Notes: generated by a model not told the origin, from the sequence alone. A DNA stretch of 64,000 nucleotides from Thermoleophilaceae bacterium (GCA_040881635.1 JBBECV010000008.1:596-64595); one strand, 5' to 3'. Numbered from the stretch's first letter, positions 1 to 8,581 are shown. Numbers and translations are program-made.

Positions 1-51
1 CGGAGGCTGTGCCTTGCGCCGAGAGCGGCGCCGTGATCTATTTCCCCGAGC

Positions 52-675
52 ATGCCATTCAGTCCGTACGACGCGGCCGCCGATGCACTGAAGCGTGCGG
101 ACGAGCTTCTCGACGCCTCCACGCGGAACGGCATACCGGAGCGGGTGGCCTCGGACATCCGCCGCTCGAGCCTCGTGCTTGCAGTCGCCGCGGTTGATAC
201 CTACATGCACCGCCTGATCGTGGATCGCGCTTCCATGTGGGACAAGCTGCCCAAGAAGCTCGCTGAGACCGGGGTGCGCTTCGATCAGCTGATCGCCGAG
301 GCGCAGGAGTCCTATGAGGCTGCCCGCCGCACGCCCTTCAACTCTCGGCCCGGTGTTCGCGTCAAGCAGATTCTACGTAACCAGCTCCTGCAGAGGACTT
401 TCCAGTCGTTGCGACAAATCGAGGAGGCGCTGACCATGGCTGGCGCCGCCGGGAATTGGAAGCCGATCAGCGAGCAGCTTGGCATGACAAGAGCGCAAGT
501 CGATGCACGTCTCGGACTCATCGTGATGCGACGCAACCAAATCGTCCATGAGGGTGACTACGCCAGGCTTGATCGTCCCAGAGACGCACGTCGGAACGAG
601 CTGTCCGAGTCGGACGCCCGAGCAAGCGTTCAGTTCCTCCGCGATCTTGCTGGCGCAATCCACGCAGTCGTGTGA
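52..675 (+). CDS. HEPN-superfamily protein (putative RNase), first gene of accessory operon
   Basis: 207-aa ORF with a C-terminal Rx4H motif, R161-NQIV-H166 (MRRNQIVHEGD, nt 532-549). This is the HEPN RNase signature seen in RiboL-PSP/Abi-like families. The next gene follows 55 nt downstream on the same strand. Confidence 0.6.
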   Translation: MPFSPYDAAADALKRADELLDASTRNGIPERVASDIRRSSLVLAVAAVDTYMHRLIVDRASMWDKLPKKLAETGVRFDQLIAEAQESYEAARRTPFNSRPGVRVKQILRNQLLQRTFQSLRQIEEALTMAGAAGNWKPISEQLGMTRAQVDARLGLIVMRRNQIVHEGDYARLDRPRDARRNELSESDARASVQFLRDLAGAIHAVV

Positions 676-729
676 CCGCGTCACCGTCCTACGCCTCACA
701 TTACCCCGGCGAGATAACGTCTCCCGCGC

Positions 730-2778
730 GTGCGATTCACAACACCTGCCCCTGACGGCAAACTCTTCCGACGCGTCCTAGCCCTCGCAAGAACCGCGCG
801 GGACACCGTCGGGTTCTTGCCCGACTCGGCCTTCAGAGATCGAGCCTTCGGAGGGACGCTTCTCGCCTGCGTGGCGGAAGACGATGGCCAAGAGCTTCTG
901 GGGTACGCGCTCTACGACCTTCCCCGGGACGAGATACGCCTCGGGCAGCTCGTAGTGGCTAGCCGCGCCCGGGACGGAGGGGTAGCACGCGCACTGGTAG
1001 ACGAGATCGAAGCGAGACACTCCCCTCGTCGAGGGATCTTCCTCTATTGCCGCAACGATTTCCCCGCTACCGAGATGTGGCCTCGAATTGGATTCGTAGC
1101 CCGTGACGAGCGTGCCGGCCGAAGCTTCGAGGGACACCCACTGACGCTCTGGTGGCGCGACTTCGGGCACGCAAACCTCTTCACATCTCAAGCCGAGGTG
1201 GATGCGCGTCCCGTGGCAGTGCTCGATGCGTGCGTCTTCTTCGATCTCGTCGGCAGCAACCCGAACCGGGCCTTGCAGGAGCTTAGGTCCGACTGGATTA
1301 CAGAGCATGCGCAGCTCGGAGTTACGGCCCATCTGTATGAGGAGATTCGCCGGGGCGCGGACTCGGTTCGGCGGAGACAGGAGCGAACAGCAGCTAGAGC
1401 CCTCGAGCTCCCGGGGATAGCAGGTTCCTCCTGGCGGGCCGTCCTCGCACAATTGAAGGCAATGCATCCAGGTGCTGCCGAGAAGGACAGGGACGACCTC
1501 ACGCATCTCGCATACGCGATCGCCCATCAGGCGACCTGGATGGTCACGTCGGATCGCTCATTCCGCGGTCGGTACGCCAACGCCGCCCTCGACATGGCAT
1601 CCGTCAAGCTCGTCTCCCCGGCAGAGGTGGTCCGAGAGATCGACGAGGTAGCACGTGGCGACGCATACAGCCCGAGAGACCTAGCCGGCACGGACATGAG
1701 CCGCCGAGAGGTGGATGCCGGCACTCTGGCTGGACTTGCCGAGCGATTCGTCAATCACCAGCGAGGCGAGAGGATTCGCGACCTGCGGTCGCGAATCGAT
1801 GCGGCCGCCGCGCAGGCCAGCCATGTCCGCCTCCAATTGGTGGAGGTTGACTCACAGCCGCGGGGCCTGCTCGGGTTCGAGCATAGCCGCGGGACCACAT
1901 TTGTGCGCTTCGTCCGGGTTTCTAGAGGCGTGGGAGACACCACAGTTGCTCGCCACTTGCTAGCGATGATCCGTAATGAGGCGGCGACGTCTGGTAGCTC
2001 ACGCATCGTGGTTCAAGACACGGCCGTTCCGACAGCCATCTCCCGAAGCTACGCCGACGAGGGATTCTTTGCCGAACGAGGACAGCCTGTTGAGGCATAC
2101 CCAATCACTGGCATCGGCACCCTCAACGATCTCGATCGCCGCCTCGCGACGATCGGCGCCCAAACAGCCACGGAGCGGCTGGGTGATCCCGCCACCGGAG
2201 CAAAGGTCGGTGCGGAGGCGGAGATCGCATATGCACCGTTTCGAATCCTTGGCATGGATTTTCCGACCTTTGTCGTACCGATCAAGCCCGCATGGGCGAC
2301 GGCACTCTTCGACTCACGACTCGCTGAGGAGCAGCTCTTCCATCGAGAGTGGACACTCGGTCTGAGGCGCGAGCTTGTGTACTACCGTAGCCCGCACGCC
2401 AGCGGAGGCATCCGGGCGCCCGCCCGGATTCTCTGGTACGTCTCTGGGGTCGACTCTCCCGGCGGCGCGGAGGTCCGAGCGGTATCCCAGCTTCGCGACG
2501 TCTTGGTTGCGCCGGCTGAGCACCTCTACAGGAGGTTCGAGCGTCTAGGTACCTATACCCTCGATCAAGTCGTCAGCCGGGCGGACTCGAAGGGGCGCGC
2601 AATGGCCCTACGCTTCTCCCATACCCATGAGTTTCGACGGCCTGTTCGGCTGGACGAGCTGCGAAGGATTCTTACCGGCGATCCGAAATCTCGAAGCGTG
2701 GTCCTCCAATCCCCTAGACTCATAGACGAACATACGTTCGCCACAATCATGGGTCTAGGGTTCCCAGATGACGTCTAG
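730..2778 (+). CDS. Multidomain GNAT - PIN - GNAT - ASCH/PUA-like fusion protein
   Basis: 682-aa ORF with a GTG start at 730 (start uncertain). Domains by eye: aa 15-145 GNAT (acetyl-CoA loop ASRARDGGVARALV). aa 160-285 PIN (VLDACVFFD ... DDLTHLAYAIAHQATWMVTSDRSF, VapC-like acidic residues). aa 365-455 second GNAT (VSRGVGDTTVARHLL). aa 510-680 beta-barrel-like module (FVVPIKPAWATALFD...) parallel to the downstream ASCH protein. Confidence 0.6.
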   Translation: MRFTTPAPDGKLFRRVLALARTARDTVGFLPDSAFRDRAFGGTLLACVAEDDGQELLGYALYDLPRDEIRLGQLVVASRARDGGVARALVDEIEARHSPRRGIFLYCRNDFPATEMWPRIGFVARDERAGRSFEGHPLTLWWRDFGHANLFTSQAEVDARPVAVLDACVFFDLVGSNPNRALQELRSDWITEHAQLGVTAHLYEEIRRGADSVRRRQERTAARALELPGIAGSSWRAVLAQLKAMHPGAAEKDRDDLTHLAYAIAHQATWMVTSDRSFRGRYANAALDMASVKLVSPAEVVREIDEVARGDAYSPRDLAGTDMSRREVDAGTLAGLAERFVNHQRGERIRDLRSRIDAAAAQASHVRLQLVEVDSQPRGLLGFEHSRGTTFVRFVRVSRGVGDTTVARHLLAMIRNEAATSGSSRIVVQDTAVPTAISRSYADEGFFAERGQPVEAYPITGIGTLNDLDRRLATIGAQTATERLGDPATGAKVGAEAEIAYAPFRILGMDFPTFVVPIKPAWATALFDSRLAEEQLFHREWTLGLRRELVYYRSPHASGGIRAPARILWYVSGVDSPGGAEVRAVSQLRDVLVAPAEHLYRRFERLGTYTLDQVVSRADSKGRAMALRFSHTHEFRRPVRLDELRRILTGDPKSRSVVLQSPRLIDEHTFATIMGLGFPDDV

Positions 2779-3229
2779 GGCAAGCGCGACGGTGCTACTG
2801 AGCGTGAAGCCACGCTTCGCGACGCTGCTTCTCGACGGCACGAAGACAGTGGAGATCCGGCGAGGTCGCGTCCGCCTTGAGGACGGCGCGACGTGCTTGC
2901 TGTACTCGAGTTCGCCCGAACGGGCGCTAGTCGGGACCGTCGAGGTCGGGACGACCGAGACCGGGCATCCTTCGGATATATGGGACCGCTGGGGAAGCCG
3001 TACAGGCCTGAGACGCGATGAGTTTGATGACTATCTACGCGACTGCGCCATGGCGACGGCCATCGTGATCCGTGAGGTCCAGCAACTCGAATCCCCGATT
3101 CCGCTCGACGTACTTCGAAACCGTCGAGAGGGGTTCGTGACCCCACAGAGCTATCGCTTCGTGGCAGACGAGGAGCGTCGTCTGCTGCTTGCCCAAGCCG
3201 GCGATAGCCACCCGTCGTATTCACTGTGA
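2768..3229 (+). CDS. ASCH domain protein
   Basis: 153 aa. The N-terminus VLLSVKPRFATLLLDGTKTVEIRRG matches the ASCH hallmark (IKP.yA..I..G.KtvE.RR). The ATG overlaps the end of the upstream gene by 11 nt, which suggests translational coupling. Confidence 0.7.
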   Translation: MTSRASATVLLSVKPRFATLLLDGTKTVEIRRGRVRLEDGATCLLYSSSPERALVGTVEVGTTETGHPSDIWDRWGSRTGLRRDEFDDYLRDCAMATAIVIREVQQLESPIPLDVLRNRREGFVTPQSYRFVADEERRLLLAQAGDSHPSYSL

Positions 3230-3273
3230 CCTAAGGCAGATTCAGCTCCACCCTTGTCGGCCTCGGAACCGCT

Positions 3274-3465
3274 CTAGCGCGGGTTCGCGGGCGGCGGGAT
3301 AGATAGCTGCCGGCAGACCTCGCGGCTGAGCCCTGGGCCGATTTCCTTGTGGCGCGGCACAGCCGACACCGCGCCGCTAGGGCCTCGCCATTTCGCGTGT
3401 TTCGATCCGCCTACCTCGCGGCAGCCATGAGTGCGCAGGTGGCGCTCGAGGTCGCGGCGCTTCAC
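3274..3465 (-). CDS. hicA: HicA-family mRNA interferase toxin
   Basis: 63 aa. MKRRDLERHLRTHGCREVGGSKHAKW...VPRHKEIGPGL fits the HicA/YcfA pattern. It has a 4-nt ATGA overlap with the upstream hicB. Confidence 0.85.
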   Translation of the reverse strand: MKRRDLERHLRTHGCREVGGSKHAKWRGPSGAVSAVPRHKEIGPGLSREVCRQLSIPPPANPR

Positions 3466-3692
3466 GCTGCGGCGGTGAAGCGCAGGTGCTCGCGGTCGGC
3501 CTTCGGCGCCTCGCCGGCGAGCTCCTCGTCCGGCGTCAGGACGGTGCTGAGAGCGTCCAGGACGTTCTCGCGCGCTTCTTCCCGAGTGCGGCCCTGGCTC
3601 ATCGCCCCCGGAACCTCAAGGACCCGAGCGACGATCCATCCCGCCTCGTCGGGCGGATCGAAGGCGATGGTGAAGTCGACTGAGGCAGCCAT
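3462..3692 (-). CDS. hicB: HicB-family antitoxin
   Basis: An internal ATG at 3692 within the 3462-4202 ORF gives a 76-aa product. FDPPDEAGWIVARVLEVPGAMSQGRTREEARENVLDAL is the HicB/UPF0150 signature. The upstream part of the long ORF is Arg-rich shadow. Confidence 0.8.
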   Translation of the reverse strand: MAASVDFTIAFDPPDEAGWIVARVLEVPGAMSQGRTREEARENVLDALSTVLTPDEELAGEAPKADREHLRFTAAA

Positions 3693-4642: not shown

Positions 4643-5773
4643 CTACGCCTCGAACGCTTGGGCGACCAGGGCGGCGTCGTCCTTGCGCGGCGCGTAGTGC
4701 AGGTAGCGCATCGTGGTCTTGATGTCGGCGTGGCCCATCCACTCCTGCACGCGGCGGATGTCGGCCACGCCGATCACACGCGTGCCGAAGGTGTGGCGCA
4801 GGTCGTGGAAGCGCAGACGCCGCAGACCGGCGCGATCGAGCGCGTCCTGGTAGCGGCGCCGCAGCGCCCTGCCGTCGAGGAAGCCGCCTGAGCGGCCGGG
4901 GAAAACGAGATCGTCGTCGCCCGTCCAACGTCCCCTGTCGCGCAGCCTCGTGAGCGCTGAGGCCACGTCAGGGGACAGCGGGACAGAACGGACCTTGCCC
5001 GACTTCGGCGTCGTCAGACCGCTCTCTGAGTACGAGGCCCGCACGCGGACCGTGTCGGCGTCGAAATCGACGTCGCGCCAGCGCAGCGCGATCAGCTCGC
5101 CGCGACGCAGACCGGTGTAGGCGGCGGTCAGGTAGATCGCGGCGTCCTGCTCGGAGGCCGCCGCGTCGACCAGCGCCGCGATCTCGTCCGGCGAGAACAC
5201 CTGGATGTCGCCGCTCGGCGTCGGCGCCGGCGGCTTCTCCACGTCGGCCACTGGATTGAACGGCAGGCCGTAGACCTTCCGCGCCCGCCTCATGATCCCG
5301 TTGAGCGCGACGAACGCCTTGGTCCGCGTGGCGGGCGCGCCGTCGAGGCCGGCGAGCCACGACTCGACCATCGGCGCCGTGATCGACTCGACGGCCATGT
5401 CGCCGAAGACCGTCAGCATCCGCGCCTTGATCAGCGCGCGGTAGACGGCGACCGTCGCGGGCTTGCGGCCGCGGTCGTGCTCCTGGTAGCGCAGCCACTC
5501 GTCGGCCGCCGCGGCGAACGTGATCCCGGTCCTCACGACACCCGGGTGCTGGCCGCGCTTGATCTCCTGCAGGAGCCCGTCGAGCGCGTCCTGCGCGGTC
5601 GTCTTCGTGAAGTAGCCCTCGGCGGGGCGGCCGCGTCGCGTCCACGCCGGCCCGAGCTTCTTCTGCACCTGGCGACCGTCCGGGAGCCGGTACTTCATGT
5701 ACCAGACCGGGCCGCGCTGGCGCTCGACTCTGAAGACGTGGCCGCTGACCGGCCGAGCGAGTTGGGTGCGCAC
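4643..5773 (-). CDS. int: Tyrosine-type site-specific integrase
   Basis: 376 aa. The catalytic region is HDLRHTFGT...WMGHADIKTTMRYLHY. GTG start preceded by a GGGAGG RBS. Adjacent to the tRNA 3-prime end. Confidence 0.95.
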   Translation of the reverse strand: MRTQLARPVSGHVFRVERQRGPVWYMKYRLPDGRQVQKKLGPAWTRRGRPAEGYFTKTTAQDALDGLLQEIKRGQHPGVVRTGITFAAAADEWLRYQEHDRGRKPATVAVYRALIKARMLTVFGDMAVESITAPMVESWLAGLDGAPATRTKAFVALNGIMRRARKVYGLPFNPVADVEKPPAPTPSGDIQVFSPDEIAALVDAAASEQDAAIYLTAAYTGLRRGELIALRWRDVDFDADTVRVRASYSESGLTTPKSGKVRSVPLSPDVASALTRLRDRGRWTGDDDLVFPGRSGGFLDGRALRRRYQDALDRAGLRRLRFHDLRHTFGTRVIGVADIRRVQEWMGHADIKTTMRYLHYAPRKDDAALVAQAFEA

Positions 5774-5903: not shown

Positions 5904-5976
<73 letters not shown>

Positions 5977-6039
5977 GCGTTGGGTGGAGCGTAGCGCGAG
6001 ATTGGCTGGGCCGGGAGGACAGCGGGGCGCCGGGTGCCG

Positions 6040-6519
6040 TCAGGTCGAAGGAGGCTGCTCGCCGTCGTAGTAGTCGACGGCGTCGTCGAGGCGGAACCAC
6101 TTGCGAACGCCGCCGCCCGTGGGCAGGCGCTCGGCGGCGCCGAGCTTGTTGGAGTCGGGGTAGACGACGAGGTCGGGGTCGCCGTTGGTGCTGATCGCCA
6201 GGAAGCGGACGGCCGTGTCGCCGCGATTGACGAGCTGGTGGGCGCCGTCCTCGCCGCGGCGGAACGAGACGACGTCGCCCTCGTCCAGATCGCGCCAGCC
6301 GTCGGGCGTGCGCAGCGCTGGGCTCCCCTTCAGCACCACCAGCAGCTCCTCCTCGCCGAGGTGGAAGTGGTACGGGTAGGCCGCTTGACCGGGTGGGAGC
6401 TCCCAGAGGCTGGCGCCGAGCCGCTCGGTCTTCAGCTGGTAGCCGATGCGCGCGCGTTGCGCCCGGAATCCGTCCTGCTCGCGCGCCTCGTCGAACTGGG
6501 GATCGTTGAGGTTCGGCAT
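6040..6519 (-). CDS. Cupin domain protein
   Basis: 159 aa. LPPGQAAYPYHFHLGEEELLVVLKG...GDVVSFRRGEDGAHQLVN is a typical two-motif cupin signature. Confidence 0.8.
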   Translation of the reverse strand: MPNLNDPQFDEAREQDGFRAQRARIGYQLKTERLGASLWELPPGQAAYPYHFHLGEEELLVVLKGSPALRTPDGWRDLDEGDVVSFRRGEDGAHQLVNRGDTAVRFLAISTNGDPDLVVYPDSNKLGAAERLPTGGGVRKWFRLDDAVDYYDGEQPPST

Positions 6520-6533
6520 AGCGCGTCCGAGCC

Positions 6534-7076
6534 CTATGGGGGAGGAGGGATTCGAACCCGCTCAGGCGTAGCCACCGAATTTACAGTCCGGCCCGGCTCT
6601 CCAACTCCGGCGCTCCCCCGTGGAGCGGATGCCGATTCTAGAGGCTCAGATGAGCGACGCGGAGTCTGCGGGATCGGCCGGCCGCGCTCGACCTCGAAGC
6701 TCGCGTACTTCGGCCCGCCGAGGCGGAGCCCGGTTGCGCCATCAACTCGGTCGGCCGGAATGCACCAGCGCCGCCCATCGCCGACGTGGACGAAGAGGTA
6801 GTCGCAGCGAGTCGGGGAGAACCGCTTCGAGATCCCGTTCCAGCTCTGGTTGCCCCCACGCGTACAGATGGAGACCGCCCACCGATGCTTCTCAACGCAC
6901 CTCGTCGTCTTGACCTGAACGCGGAAGATGCGGTCGCCGAGCTCTACGGCCAAGTCCCAGTCCGGGCTATGGCCCAAGGGAAGCGCCACCTTGCCCCCCA
7001 TCGAGGCGAACAACTCGAGAGCCGACAGCTCGCCGAAATCCCCTTGCTCTTGCCTCGTCATGGGACGAACATACAT
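6534..7076 (-). CDS. PD-(D/E)XK endonuclease-like protein; ORF runs through tRNA-Tyr
   Basis: QGDFGELSALELFASMGGKVALPLGHSPDWDLAVELGDRIFRVQVKTT...CDYLFVHVGDGRRWCIP fits the group-I-intron-associated PD-(D/E)XK family layout. The recognisable domain ends near aa 132. The last ~45 codons are simply the tRNA translated. Confidence 0.55.
   Translation of the reverse strand: MYVRPMTRQEQGDFGELSALELFASMGGKVALPLGHSPDWDLAVELGDRIFRVQVKTTRCVEKHRWAVSICTRGGNQSWNGISKRFSPTRCDYLFVHVGDGRRWCIPADRVDGATGLRLGGPKYASFEVERGRPIPQTPRRSSEPLESASAPRGSAGVGEPGRTVNSVATPERVRIPPPP
6537..6619 (-). tRNA. tRNA-Tyr (anticodon GTA), long variable arm
   Basis: Minus-strand read. Acceptor GGGGGAG/CTCCCCC, anticodon loop C-T-GTA-A-A, long variable arm, T-loop TTCGAAT. 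There is one C-U mismatch in the T-stem. Confidence 0.85.
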
Positions 7077-7159
7077 TCGCCATCGGACAGAACATATGCA
7101 GGCGGCGAGGGCAGGACGGGCGCGCGCGGGCGCCCGTCCCGATGGTCCCTACCGGAGCG

Positions 7160-8311
<1,152 letters not shown>

Positions 8312-8581
8312 CCCCTACTCCTCAAGAACGCAGTTGCAGTGCTTCCGACACCCGCCCCCATACGAGGCTGCCGGTCTTCGTCACGGCTGTATGTGCGTCT
8401 GGTACGGCGTGCGCGGCGCTCGCCGCGAGGGACTGAGCCATTTATGAGGAGCCTTCGAGGAGGTCCAGGCTTCGAGCCGCTCGCCACGATAGCAACATCG
8501 TGCGGAAGGGCACTTCGTTCGCCCCGCGATGCTCGGAGCGGCCGCGGAGTAGGCGGGCCCGAGCGGTATCGTGGACGGCCG

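Follow-up and report, generated by a model that had tools for sequence, protein, structure and literature searches.

A stand-alone ASCH gene overlapping a GNAT-PIN-GNAT-PUA fusion gene on a tRNA-Thr island, and its candidate role as an enzyme-type antidote

We analysed a 64,000-nucleotide stretch of DNA from a Thermoleophilaceae bacterium (GCA_040881635.1, JBBECV010000008.1:596-64595; below, the window), which begins at base 596 of its contig. Near its start lie two overlapping genes on the same strand: a large gene for a fusion protein, in which two GNAT acetyltransferase domains, a PIN domain and a PUA-like module follow one another in the order GNAT-1, PIN, GNAT-2, PUA-like, and a small gene for a stand-alone ASCH protein (Table 1). 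An initial annotation, made from the sequence alone, had placed the start of the small gene within the last 11 nucleotides of the large one and proposed it as a candidate antidote or regulator. Open reading frame (ORF) calls and the sequence itself bear out this gene model: the ASCH ORF opens with ATG, runs for 153 codons, and its first 11 nucleotides, ATGACGTCTAG, are the end of the fusion ORF. Its 107 database homologues, with E-values down to 6e-54, show the ASCH ORF to be a real gene. The two genes are probably translationally coupled; a promoter and terminator scan of window positions 1-3600 gave no signal above chance.

The gene pair and its conservation

The small protein is identified by homology and structural modelling as a full-length ASCH protein of the ZmASCH type (family 2, ‘GKER’ subgroup). 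Residues 9-142 match the crystal structure of ZmASCH, the ZMO0922 protein of Zymomonas mobilis (5GUQ/5GUS), with E=2e-15 and 29% identity (phmmer against the PDB). An AlphaFold2 model built with 40 relatives in the alignment has a mean predicted local distance difference test (pLDDT) score of 93.1, and Foldseek superposes it on ZmASCH with a template modelling (TM) score of 0.84-0.92 and a root-mean-square deviation of 1.3 Å over 136 residues, indicating the same fold over the whole length. The match to the Pfam ASCH family (PF04266) is marginal (21.4 bits against a gathering cut-off of 21.2) and extends over residues 11-60 only. The family has a median isoelectric point (pI) of 9.6, like that of nucleic-acid binders, whereas the window copy is near neutral (pI 6.1). 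No helix-turn-helix (HTH), ribbon-helix-helix or AbrB DNA-binding domain was detected in the window ASCH protein with Pfam or NCBIfam.

The fusion protein has at least 85 full-length homologues. In an alignment of 30 full-length relatives, the acidic residues D166, D256 and D275 of the PIN domain are invariant and E205 nearly so. The acetyl-CoA motif of GNAT-1 (R81-x-x-G84-x-A86) keeps G84 throughout, with A86 and R87 almost always present, and GNAT-2 has an invariant R396 and a nearly invariant G400. The C-terminal block is well conserved in the same alignment; a Pfam search with the last 200 residues of the fusion returned no match even at E=10. Of the proteins matched in a search restricted to residues 495-682, nearly all share the GNAT/PIN architecture, and no swapping of effectors on the conserved C-terminal module was seen at this distance.

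Taking one genome per species, we identified at least 141 loci with a relative of the fusion protein, patchily distributed across more than ten phyla, including Actinomycetota, Chloroflexota, Cyanobacteria, Bacteroidota, Planctomycetota, Verrucomicrobiota, Acidobacteriota, Latescibacterota, Poribacteria, Myxococcota and Alphaproteobacteria. Eighty of these loci were fetched and compared. An orthologous small ASCH gene lies directly 3' of the fusion gene, on the same strand, in 79 of the 80, and some ASCH gene occupies this position in all 80. With ASCH starts placed by a hidden Markov model (HMM), the overlap between stop and start among the 79 loci is most often 4 nt (38 loci) or 11 nt (15), and less often 8 nt (8) or 1 nt (4). 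This arrangement upholds the proposal that the two genes are tightly coupled partners. Nor does the small gene look dispensable in conserved loci: since all 80 keep an ASCH partner, it appears to be obligatory. The ASCH protein evolves as slowly as the best-conserved parts of the fusion, with a mean distance of 1.34 compared with 1.22-2.42 for the fusion domains.

The one locus without the ortholog comes from an Anaeromyxobacter metagenome-assembled genome (MAG; locus L024). ORF reading ruled out the possibility that it lacks ASCH altogether. A different ASCH gene (locus positions 7973-8410; Pfam ASCH E=1.3e-4) overlaps the 3' end of the fusion gene there, and its octapeptide, G-A-K-V-W-E-V-R, is intact; by sequence, this is a non-orthologous displacement of the ASCH partner. 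One of the 79 loci, in a Solirubrobacteraceae MAG (5935-8421), holds a decayed cassette: its fusion frame breaks off after 504 residues, a different ORF encodes the C-terminal module, and ASCH is matched only weakly (E=4e-12).

More distant ASCH relatives also sit beside a large GNAT-containing protein in five of five cases, once upstream of its gene and four times overlapping its end. Alpha-proteobacterial versions have an HTH-ASCH fusion gene upstream of the one for the GNAT protein. In Rhizobium etli, for example, on a conjugative plasmid (locus L088, 2536-5520), the HTH-ASCH gene is followed by a gene for a 512-residue GNAT protein and then by an AAA ATPase gene, and a NACHT gene adjoins. 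In another distant locus, from a 2.9-Mb genome (1272-4579), a 910-residue GNAT protein is followed by an overlapping ASCH gene of 192 codons.

Table 1. Position and basis of the features discussed (window coordinates; residue numbers refer to the respective protein)
Feature	Position	Strand	Basis or remark
Fusion gene, 682 aa: GNAT-1 / PIN / GNAT-2 / PUA-like (ASCH/EVE-like)	730..2778	+	Pfam, NCBIfam, hhalign, AlphaFold2
GNAT-1 (residues 34-127), extra N-terminal acetyltransferase domain	829..1110	+	Pfam Acetyltransf_1, E=3e-8
PIN RNase domain (residues 163-279)	1216..1566	+	Pfam PIN_3 at 163-276, E=2e-9; acidic set D166, E205, D256, D275
GNAT-2 (residues ~361-455), divergent, acetyltransferase-like	1810..2094	+	NCBIfam ArsN2 match at 370-427; collinear by hhalign with the M11A protein of locus L084
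C-terminal PUA-like module (residues 495-682)	2212..2775	+	hhalign, PADLOC, AlphaFold2, Foldseek
Stand-alone ASCH gene, 153 aa (PDC-M11B / GevA-type, ZmASCH-like fold)	2768..3229	+	ORF, PDB, PADLOC, AlphaFold2/Foldseek
Start/stop overlap of fusion and ASCH genes, 11 nt, ATGACGTCTAG	2768..2778	+	Sequence
Octapeptide G24-T-K26-T-V-E29-I-R31 (GxKxxExR, ‘GKER’)	2837..2860	+	G24, K26, E29, R31 invariant, 40/40
Y46 codon (counterpart of ZmASCH Tyr47)	2903..2905	+	Alignment to 5GUS; invariant, 40/40
P126-Q127-S128-Y129-R130 motif (ZmASCH cleft residues Gln127/Ser128)	3143..3157	+	Invariant or nearly so; pLDDT ~95
Disordered variable tail of ASCH (residues 142-153)	3191..3226	+	pLDDT falling from 67 to 50; 1 acidic, 0 basic residues
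HEPN (RiboL-PSP) gene	52..675	+	Pfam E=7.6e-8; 55 nt upstream of fusion gene
hicA-like toxin gene, convergent with ASCH gene	3274..3465	-	Pfam HicA_toxin, E=2e-9
Tyrosine integrase of the island	4643..5773	-	Pfam Phage_integrase, E=9e-32
tRNA-Thr(GGT)	5904..5976	-	ARAGORN

Free and fused modules: homology and conserved site

The initial annotation had described the free ASCH protein as paralogous to the C-terminal module of the fusion. Directly compared by BLASTP, the ASCH protein and the fusion give no significant match (best E=0.84). When the 40-sequence ASCH family is aligned by hhalign with the C-terminal columns of the fusion family, the probability is 96.8% in global mode (E=3e-10) and 95.8% in local mode (E=7e-9), over about 140-150 columns with 19% identity. 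The ASCH HMM also matches the fusion protein directly in several related loci (best E=1e-7), and the PADLOC models for PDC-M11A match both the fusion and the ASCH protein. Searched against the PDB, a profile built from 59 C-terminal modules has one significant match, ZmASCH (E=1e-4). The AlphaFold2 model of the fused module (pLDDT 93.2) likewise has ZmASCH as its best Foldseek match (E=6e-8, TMt 0.76-0.82), followed by the EVE-type structures McrB-N (6N0S), 2P5D, 2GBS, 1ZCE and THYN1, and then by other ASCH and YTH domains. Because the relationship is seen only with profiles and structures and is blank in BLASTP, these comparisons identify the free protein and the fused module as remote homologues within the PUA-like/ASCH superfamily and exclude a recent duplication. 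The claim of paralogy thus stands in its remote sense, and a recent copy of one module from the other is set aside.

The free protein retains an intact enzyme-type site, composed of the GxKxxExR octapeptide, Tyr46 and the PQS residues. Across the 40 family members, G24, K26, E29, R31, Y46, G56, W72, Y89, P126 and Q127 are invariant. PQSYR is the family's most conserved motif, with S128, Y129 and R130 nearly as constant as the proline and glutamine before them. The octapeptide is also intact in the phage homologue GevA and in the HTH-ASCH fusion on the Rhizobium plasmid. In other ASCH proteins (TthASCH, EOLA1 and TRIP4) the lysine and glutamate of the octapeptide are essential for deacetylation of N4-acetylcytidine (ac4C) in tRNA (bioRxiv 10.64898/2026.02.27.708502). 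The equivalents of ZmASCH Tyr47, Gln127 and Ser128 here are Y46, Q127 and S128, with Arg52 standing where ZmASCH has Lys53; mutation of Tyr47 or Ser128 in ZmASCH reduces nucleic-acid binding, and Y47F also reduces RNA cleavage (PMC5615036).

Equivalents of the cleft residues persist in the fused module: of 59 sequences, 57 have W569, 54 have Y570, 37 have Q660, 40 have S661 and 48 have P662. The sites that align with K26 and E29, by contrast, vary, and the octapeptide is not recovered in any register of the alignment. The two modules are therefore alike in their cleft and unlike in their site, with the Lys/Glu pair present in the free copy and missing from the fused one. This asymmetry suggests that both may bind a similar nucleic-acid ligand and that chemistry on that ligand, if any, would be carried out by the free ASCH protein only.

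The C-terminal 30 residues of the ASCH protein had been described as acidic and unstructured-looking, as in labile antitoxins. In the AlphaFold2 model residues 129-132 form a strand and residues 134-141 a helix, both with a pLDDT of about 95, within a confidently folded stretch (residues 124-141) that includes PQSYR; the alignment to ZmASCH itself reaches residue 142. Only residues 142-153 are disordered and unconserved. Over residues 124-153, four acidic side chains are set against three basic ones, so that the net charge is about -1. The description of the tail is thus contradicted by the model, and the likeness to a labile antitoxin falls with it, as the protein has no acidic disordered tail, evolves slowly and carries an invariant enzyme-type site.

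Genomic setting and catalogued relatives

The pair is carried by an integrase-bearing island. The 3' 42 nt of the tRNA-Thr gene (window 5904-5945) are repeated exactly at contig positions 396-437, 158-199 nt to the left of the window start. As this exact direct repeat bounds both ends, the island is complete, with a length of 6103 bp. As cargo it carries HEPN, the pair of fusion and ASCH genes, and hicAB. We considered a three-gene operon that would include HEPN and rejected it, as no HEPN homologue occurs in any of the 80 related loci (0/80). For the same reason, and because it has no visible partner gene here, HEPN appears to be separate island cargo. Before hicA lies a hicB-like ORF of about 76 codons (weak UPF0150 match; 4-nt overlap; within window 3274-3692, reverse strand), an antitoxin-first order that reverses the usual hicAB layout. 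The ORF finder lists an ORF of 246 codons here, which has probably been extended too far.

In related loci the only conserved flanking families are integrases and restriction-modification genes. In a scan of a random subset of 108 neighbours, the commonest nearest large neighbours belong to restriction-modification or other defence families (N6_Mtase, Eco57I, MmeI, Mrr, Type ISP, type IIG, DrmMI and PglX). Plasmids carry related forms, as do lambdoid, P2-like and lactic-acid-bacterial prophages, and this genome holds a single copy of the pair. Given the integrase island, the plasmids and prophages, and the restriction-modification and defence neighbours, the cassette fits the pattern of a mobile conflict module better than that of a housekeeping locus. 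The alternative, a housekeeping RNA-modification pair that writes and then reads or erases acetyl marks on the cell's own tRNA or rRNA, can draw on the ac4C-tRNA deacetylases among ASCH proteins and the ac4C-writing GNAT enzymes, and is scarcely credible given the island, the patchy distribution, the company of defence genes, plasmids and prophages, the PIN nuclease domain and the single copy.

By profile comparison the pair belongs to a module already catalogued as a candidate phage-defence or toxin-antidote system, PDC-M11 (‘PIN-GNAT-EVE + ASCH’). In PADLOC, the window ASCH protein matches PDC-M11B with E=2.2e-30 (residues 4-138 aligned to positions 5-135 of the 142-position profile). Residues 496-654 of the fusion match PDC-M11A with E=1.3e-10 (profile positions 314-468 of 486), that is, over the last domain only. 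Since the M11A models cover 496-654 of its 682 residues, we regard the window fusion as a divergent, larger A protein. A canonical PDC-M11A protein of about 490 residues is collinear with fusion residues 163-653 through PIN, GNAT-2 and the PUA-like module, in a weak hhalign alignment (E=3e-4, probability 38%). Canonical M11A begins at PIN, whereas the window fusion has the extra GNAT-1 before it. On this alignment GNAT-2 is the counterpart of the canonical GNAT, which Pfam detects in the canonical proteins of loci L081 and L084; in L081 a weak EVE-like match follows the GNAT. What is new here is the additional N-terminal GNAT and the carriage of the cassette on a complete 6.1-kb tRNA-Thr island. 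PDC systems are predictions made by ‘guilt by embedding’ in the work of Payne et al. (2024, bioRxiv 10.1101/2024.01.29.577857), and among the papers that mention PDC-M11 those listed are phage-host studies unrelated to the function of the system.

Operons of the (PIN)-GNAT-EVE plus ASCH type are credited to Iyer et al. (2013, NAR 41:7635) in the account of Bell, Wolf & Koonin (2020, PMC7641849). That account treats them as putative toxin-antitoxin operons associated with restriction-modification genes and mobile elements, notes that no module of this kind had been characterised, and says that the role of ASCH ‘remains unclear’. The window pair shares with them the order PIN, GNAT, C-terminal PUA-like/EVE (fusion residues 163-279, ~361-455 and 495-682) and the separate ASCH gene in the same operon. 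It differs in its GNAT-PIN-GNAT-PUA order, which is absent from their text. An AAA_17 ATPase gene is frequent but not obligatory in the published operons and present in L081-L083 and L088; it is absent here, where the next gene is the convergent hicA. By profile and structure, the fusion's C-terminal module resembles ZmASCH more than it does the solved EVE proteins.

A further relative is annotated in GenBank PV340567.1 (Escherichia phage PhiR47_2, 5404-6832), where two overlapping genes carry the labels ‘GevT toxin’ and ‘GevA antitoxin’. GevA has 31% identity to the window ASCH protein (E=1e-23), and the C-terminal half of GevT matches the PUA-like module of the fusion (90.8%). Order and overlap are as in the window pair, whereas GevT has 357 residues and consists of GNAT-EVE only, with neither PIN nor a second GNAT. 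In this lambdoid phage the pair occupies the site immediately downstream of cI, which looks equivalent to the rexAB slot of lambda, a known prophage-defence hotspot.

The free ASCH protein as a candidate antidote

We predict that the product of the small gene is the B subunit in a conflict cassette of two genes, one of the PDC-M11, (PIN)-GNAT-EVE plus ASCH or ‘GevTA’ type. We propose, with a probability of roughly 0.45, that the free ASCH protein is the antidote to the fusion effector, and the best reading of such an antidote is one of enzyme type rather than a labile antitoxin. The large fusion protein would then be the toxic effector: its PUA-like module would steer it to RNA or another nucleic acid, one or both GNAT domains would acetylate the target, and the PIN domain would cleave it. 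The free ASCH protein would most likely act either by catalysis or through occupancy of that same nucleic-acid ligand, and probably does not serve as a labile disordered plug. It might remove or block an acyl mark, in the manner of the ASCH amidohydrolases that act on ac4C, or it might pair with the GNAT-2/PUA core. Phage infection or loss of the element could shift the balance toward the effector.

An antidote that works through the conserved site is favoured because this site is invariant in every ASCH partner examined, including the L024 replacement, because the protein is folded and slow-evolving, because no other candidate neutraliser is conserved near the pair in the neighbourhoods of related loci, and because a coupled downstream gene suits a catalytic antidote better than a stoichiometric one. 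The asymmetry between the free and fused modules, taken with the non-orthologous ASCH in one locus, also points at the sequence level to a catalytic or ligand-level antidote over a disordered plug. By analogy, an antidote role agrees with the GevT/GevA entries, as labels only, and with the HTH-ASCH fusions upstream of the GNAT gene in alpha-proteobacteria.

Several points weigh on the other side. That the fusion is toxic is assumed only from what its domains are known for, and an antidote gene 3' of its toxin gene is the less common toxin-antitoxin order. We found no functional study of PDC-M11, GNAT-EVE or GevT/GevA in the literature, and the ‘antitoxin’ of GevA is a database label for which we found no publication. 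ZmASCH, the closest characterised relative, was reported to be a Mg-dependent ribonuclease acting on single-stranded RNA in vitro (Kim et al. 2017, PMC5615036); it was examined as an isolated protein, whereas the window ASCH is known in a gene pair. ZmASCH neither hydrolysed free ac4C nor lowered ac4C in vivo (bioRxiv 10.64898/2026.02.27.708502), and these negative results make an ‘eraser’ step weak for the ZmASCH subfamily. ASCH has also been found as a fusion with HsdS, the specificity subunit, suggestive of a specificity or reader role (Bell et al. 2020, PMC7641849). ASCH distances follow those of GNAT-2 (r=0.73) and the PUA module (0.71) more closely than those of GNAT-1 (0.64) and PIN (0.53), a point in the antidote's favour, but these mirror-tree correlations are confounded by shared ancestry and distance saturation, and are suggestive only, not evidence of contact.

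Some of these points lead to another explanation, possible if rather unlikely, in which the free ASCH protein is a co-sensor or targeting subunit: a second reader that acts in concert with the PUA-like module of the fusion, such as in a pseudo-dimer, so that foreign or modified RNA or DNA switches on the GNAT and PIN domains during infection. The ZmASCH cleft tyrosine and Gln-Ser pair are kept in both modules, the ASCH family is basic (its median pI is that quoted above), the neighbourhood is rich in restriction-modification genes, and ASCH co-varies with the PUA/GNAT-2 core. PUA-like domains (EVE, YTH, SRA and ASCH) are, moreover, established readers of modified bases. The HsdS-fused ASCH is that of Methanohalophilus (Bell et al. 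2020, PMC7641849). Against a pure reader stands the invariance of the Lys/Glu pair in every ASCH partner examined, those of L024 and of the HTH fusion included, which suggests chemistry beyond binding, and the phage homologue bears the database label of an antitoxin.

A classical labile type II antitoxin, in which the domain's free copy would plug the effector-linked one or compete with it and a protease-sensitive, acidic, disordered C-terminus makes it short-lived, is improbable. Gene overlap and co-occurrence, the homology between free and fused modules and the GevA label are all compatible with it. The supposed 30-residue tail, however, is a folded strand and helix bearing PQSYR, with disorder limited to 12 unconserved residues and hardly any net charge. 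The window copy lacks a DNA-binding domain, the protein is conserved as well as the best domains of the fusion, and the substitution of a non-orthologous ASCH in L024 is hard to reconcile with a co-evolved plug interface.

We consider it very improbable that the ASCH protein acts as a DNA-binding transcriptional regulator of the fusion gene. Bell et al. (2020, PMC7641849) suggested such a role, HTH-ASCH fusions exist, the JGI/COG family label reads ‘predicted transcriptional regulator’, and the TRIP4 ASCH domain binds double-stranded DNA in PDB entries. The window copy, however, has no HTH, and a coupled gene at the 3' end of the operon would not be expressed without the fusion transcript. That an HTH is added where regulation is needed implies a different task for the ASCH domain itself.

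Returning to the antidote reading, a more specific form of it would make the cassette an acetylation-based writer/reader/eraser system of toxin and antidote acting on nucleic acid. The GNAT activity would acetylate a base in RNA (or DNA), the catalytically dead PUA-like module would read the mark and position the PIN domain, and the free ASCH amidohydrolase would erase it. We regard this specific scheme as unlikely as it stands. It would follow a logic like that of DarT/DarG, where a transferase toxin modifies nucleic acid and a hydrolase removes the mark; the parallel is one of apparent functional analogy and not of homology, with ADP-ribosylation and a macrodomain there as opposed to acetylation and ASCH here.

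Current PDC-M11A models recognise the GNAT-PIN-GNAT-PUA family over its last domain only, and this family of about 680-residue proteins is large and widespread, with at least 141 loci. The ASCH/PIN-GNAT-PUA pair is thus among the most widespread predicted conflict modules. If the writer/reader/eraser scheme were true, the cassette would be the acetyl counterpart of DarT/DarG and would provide the first physiological role for the widespread ZmASCH-type proteins.

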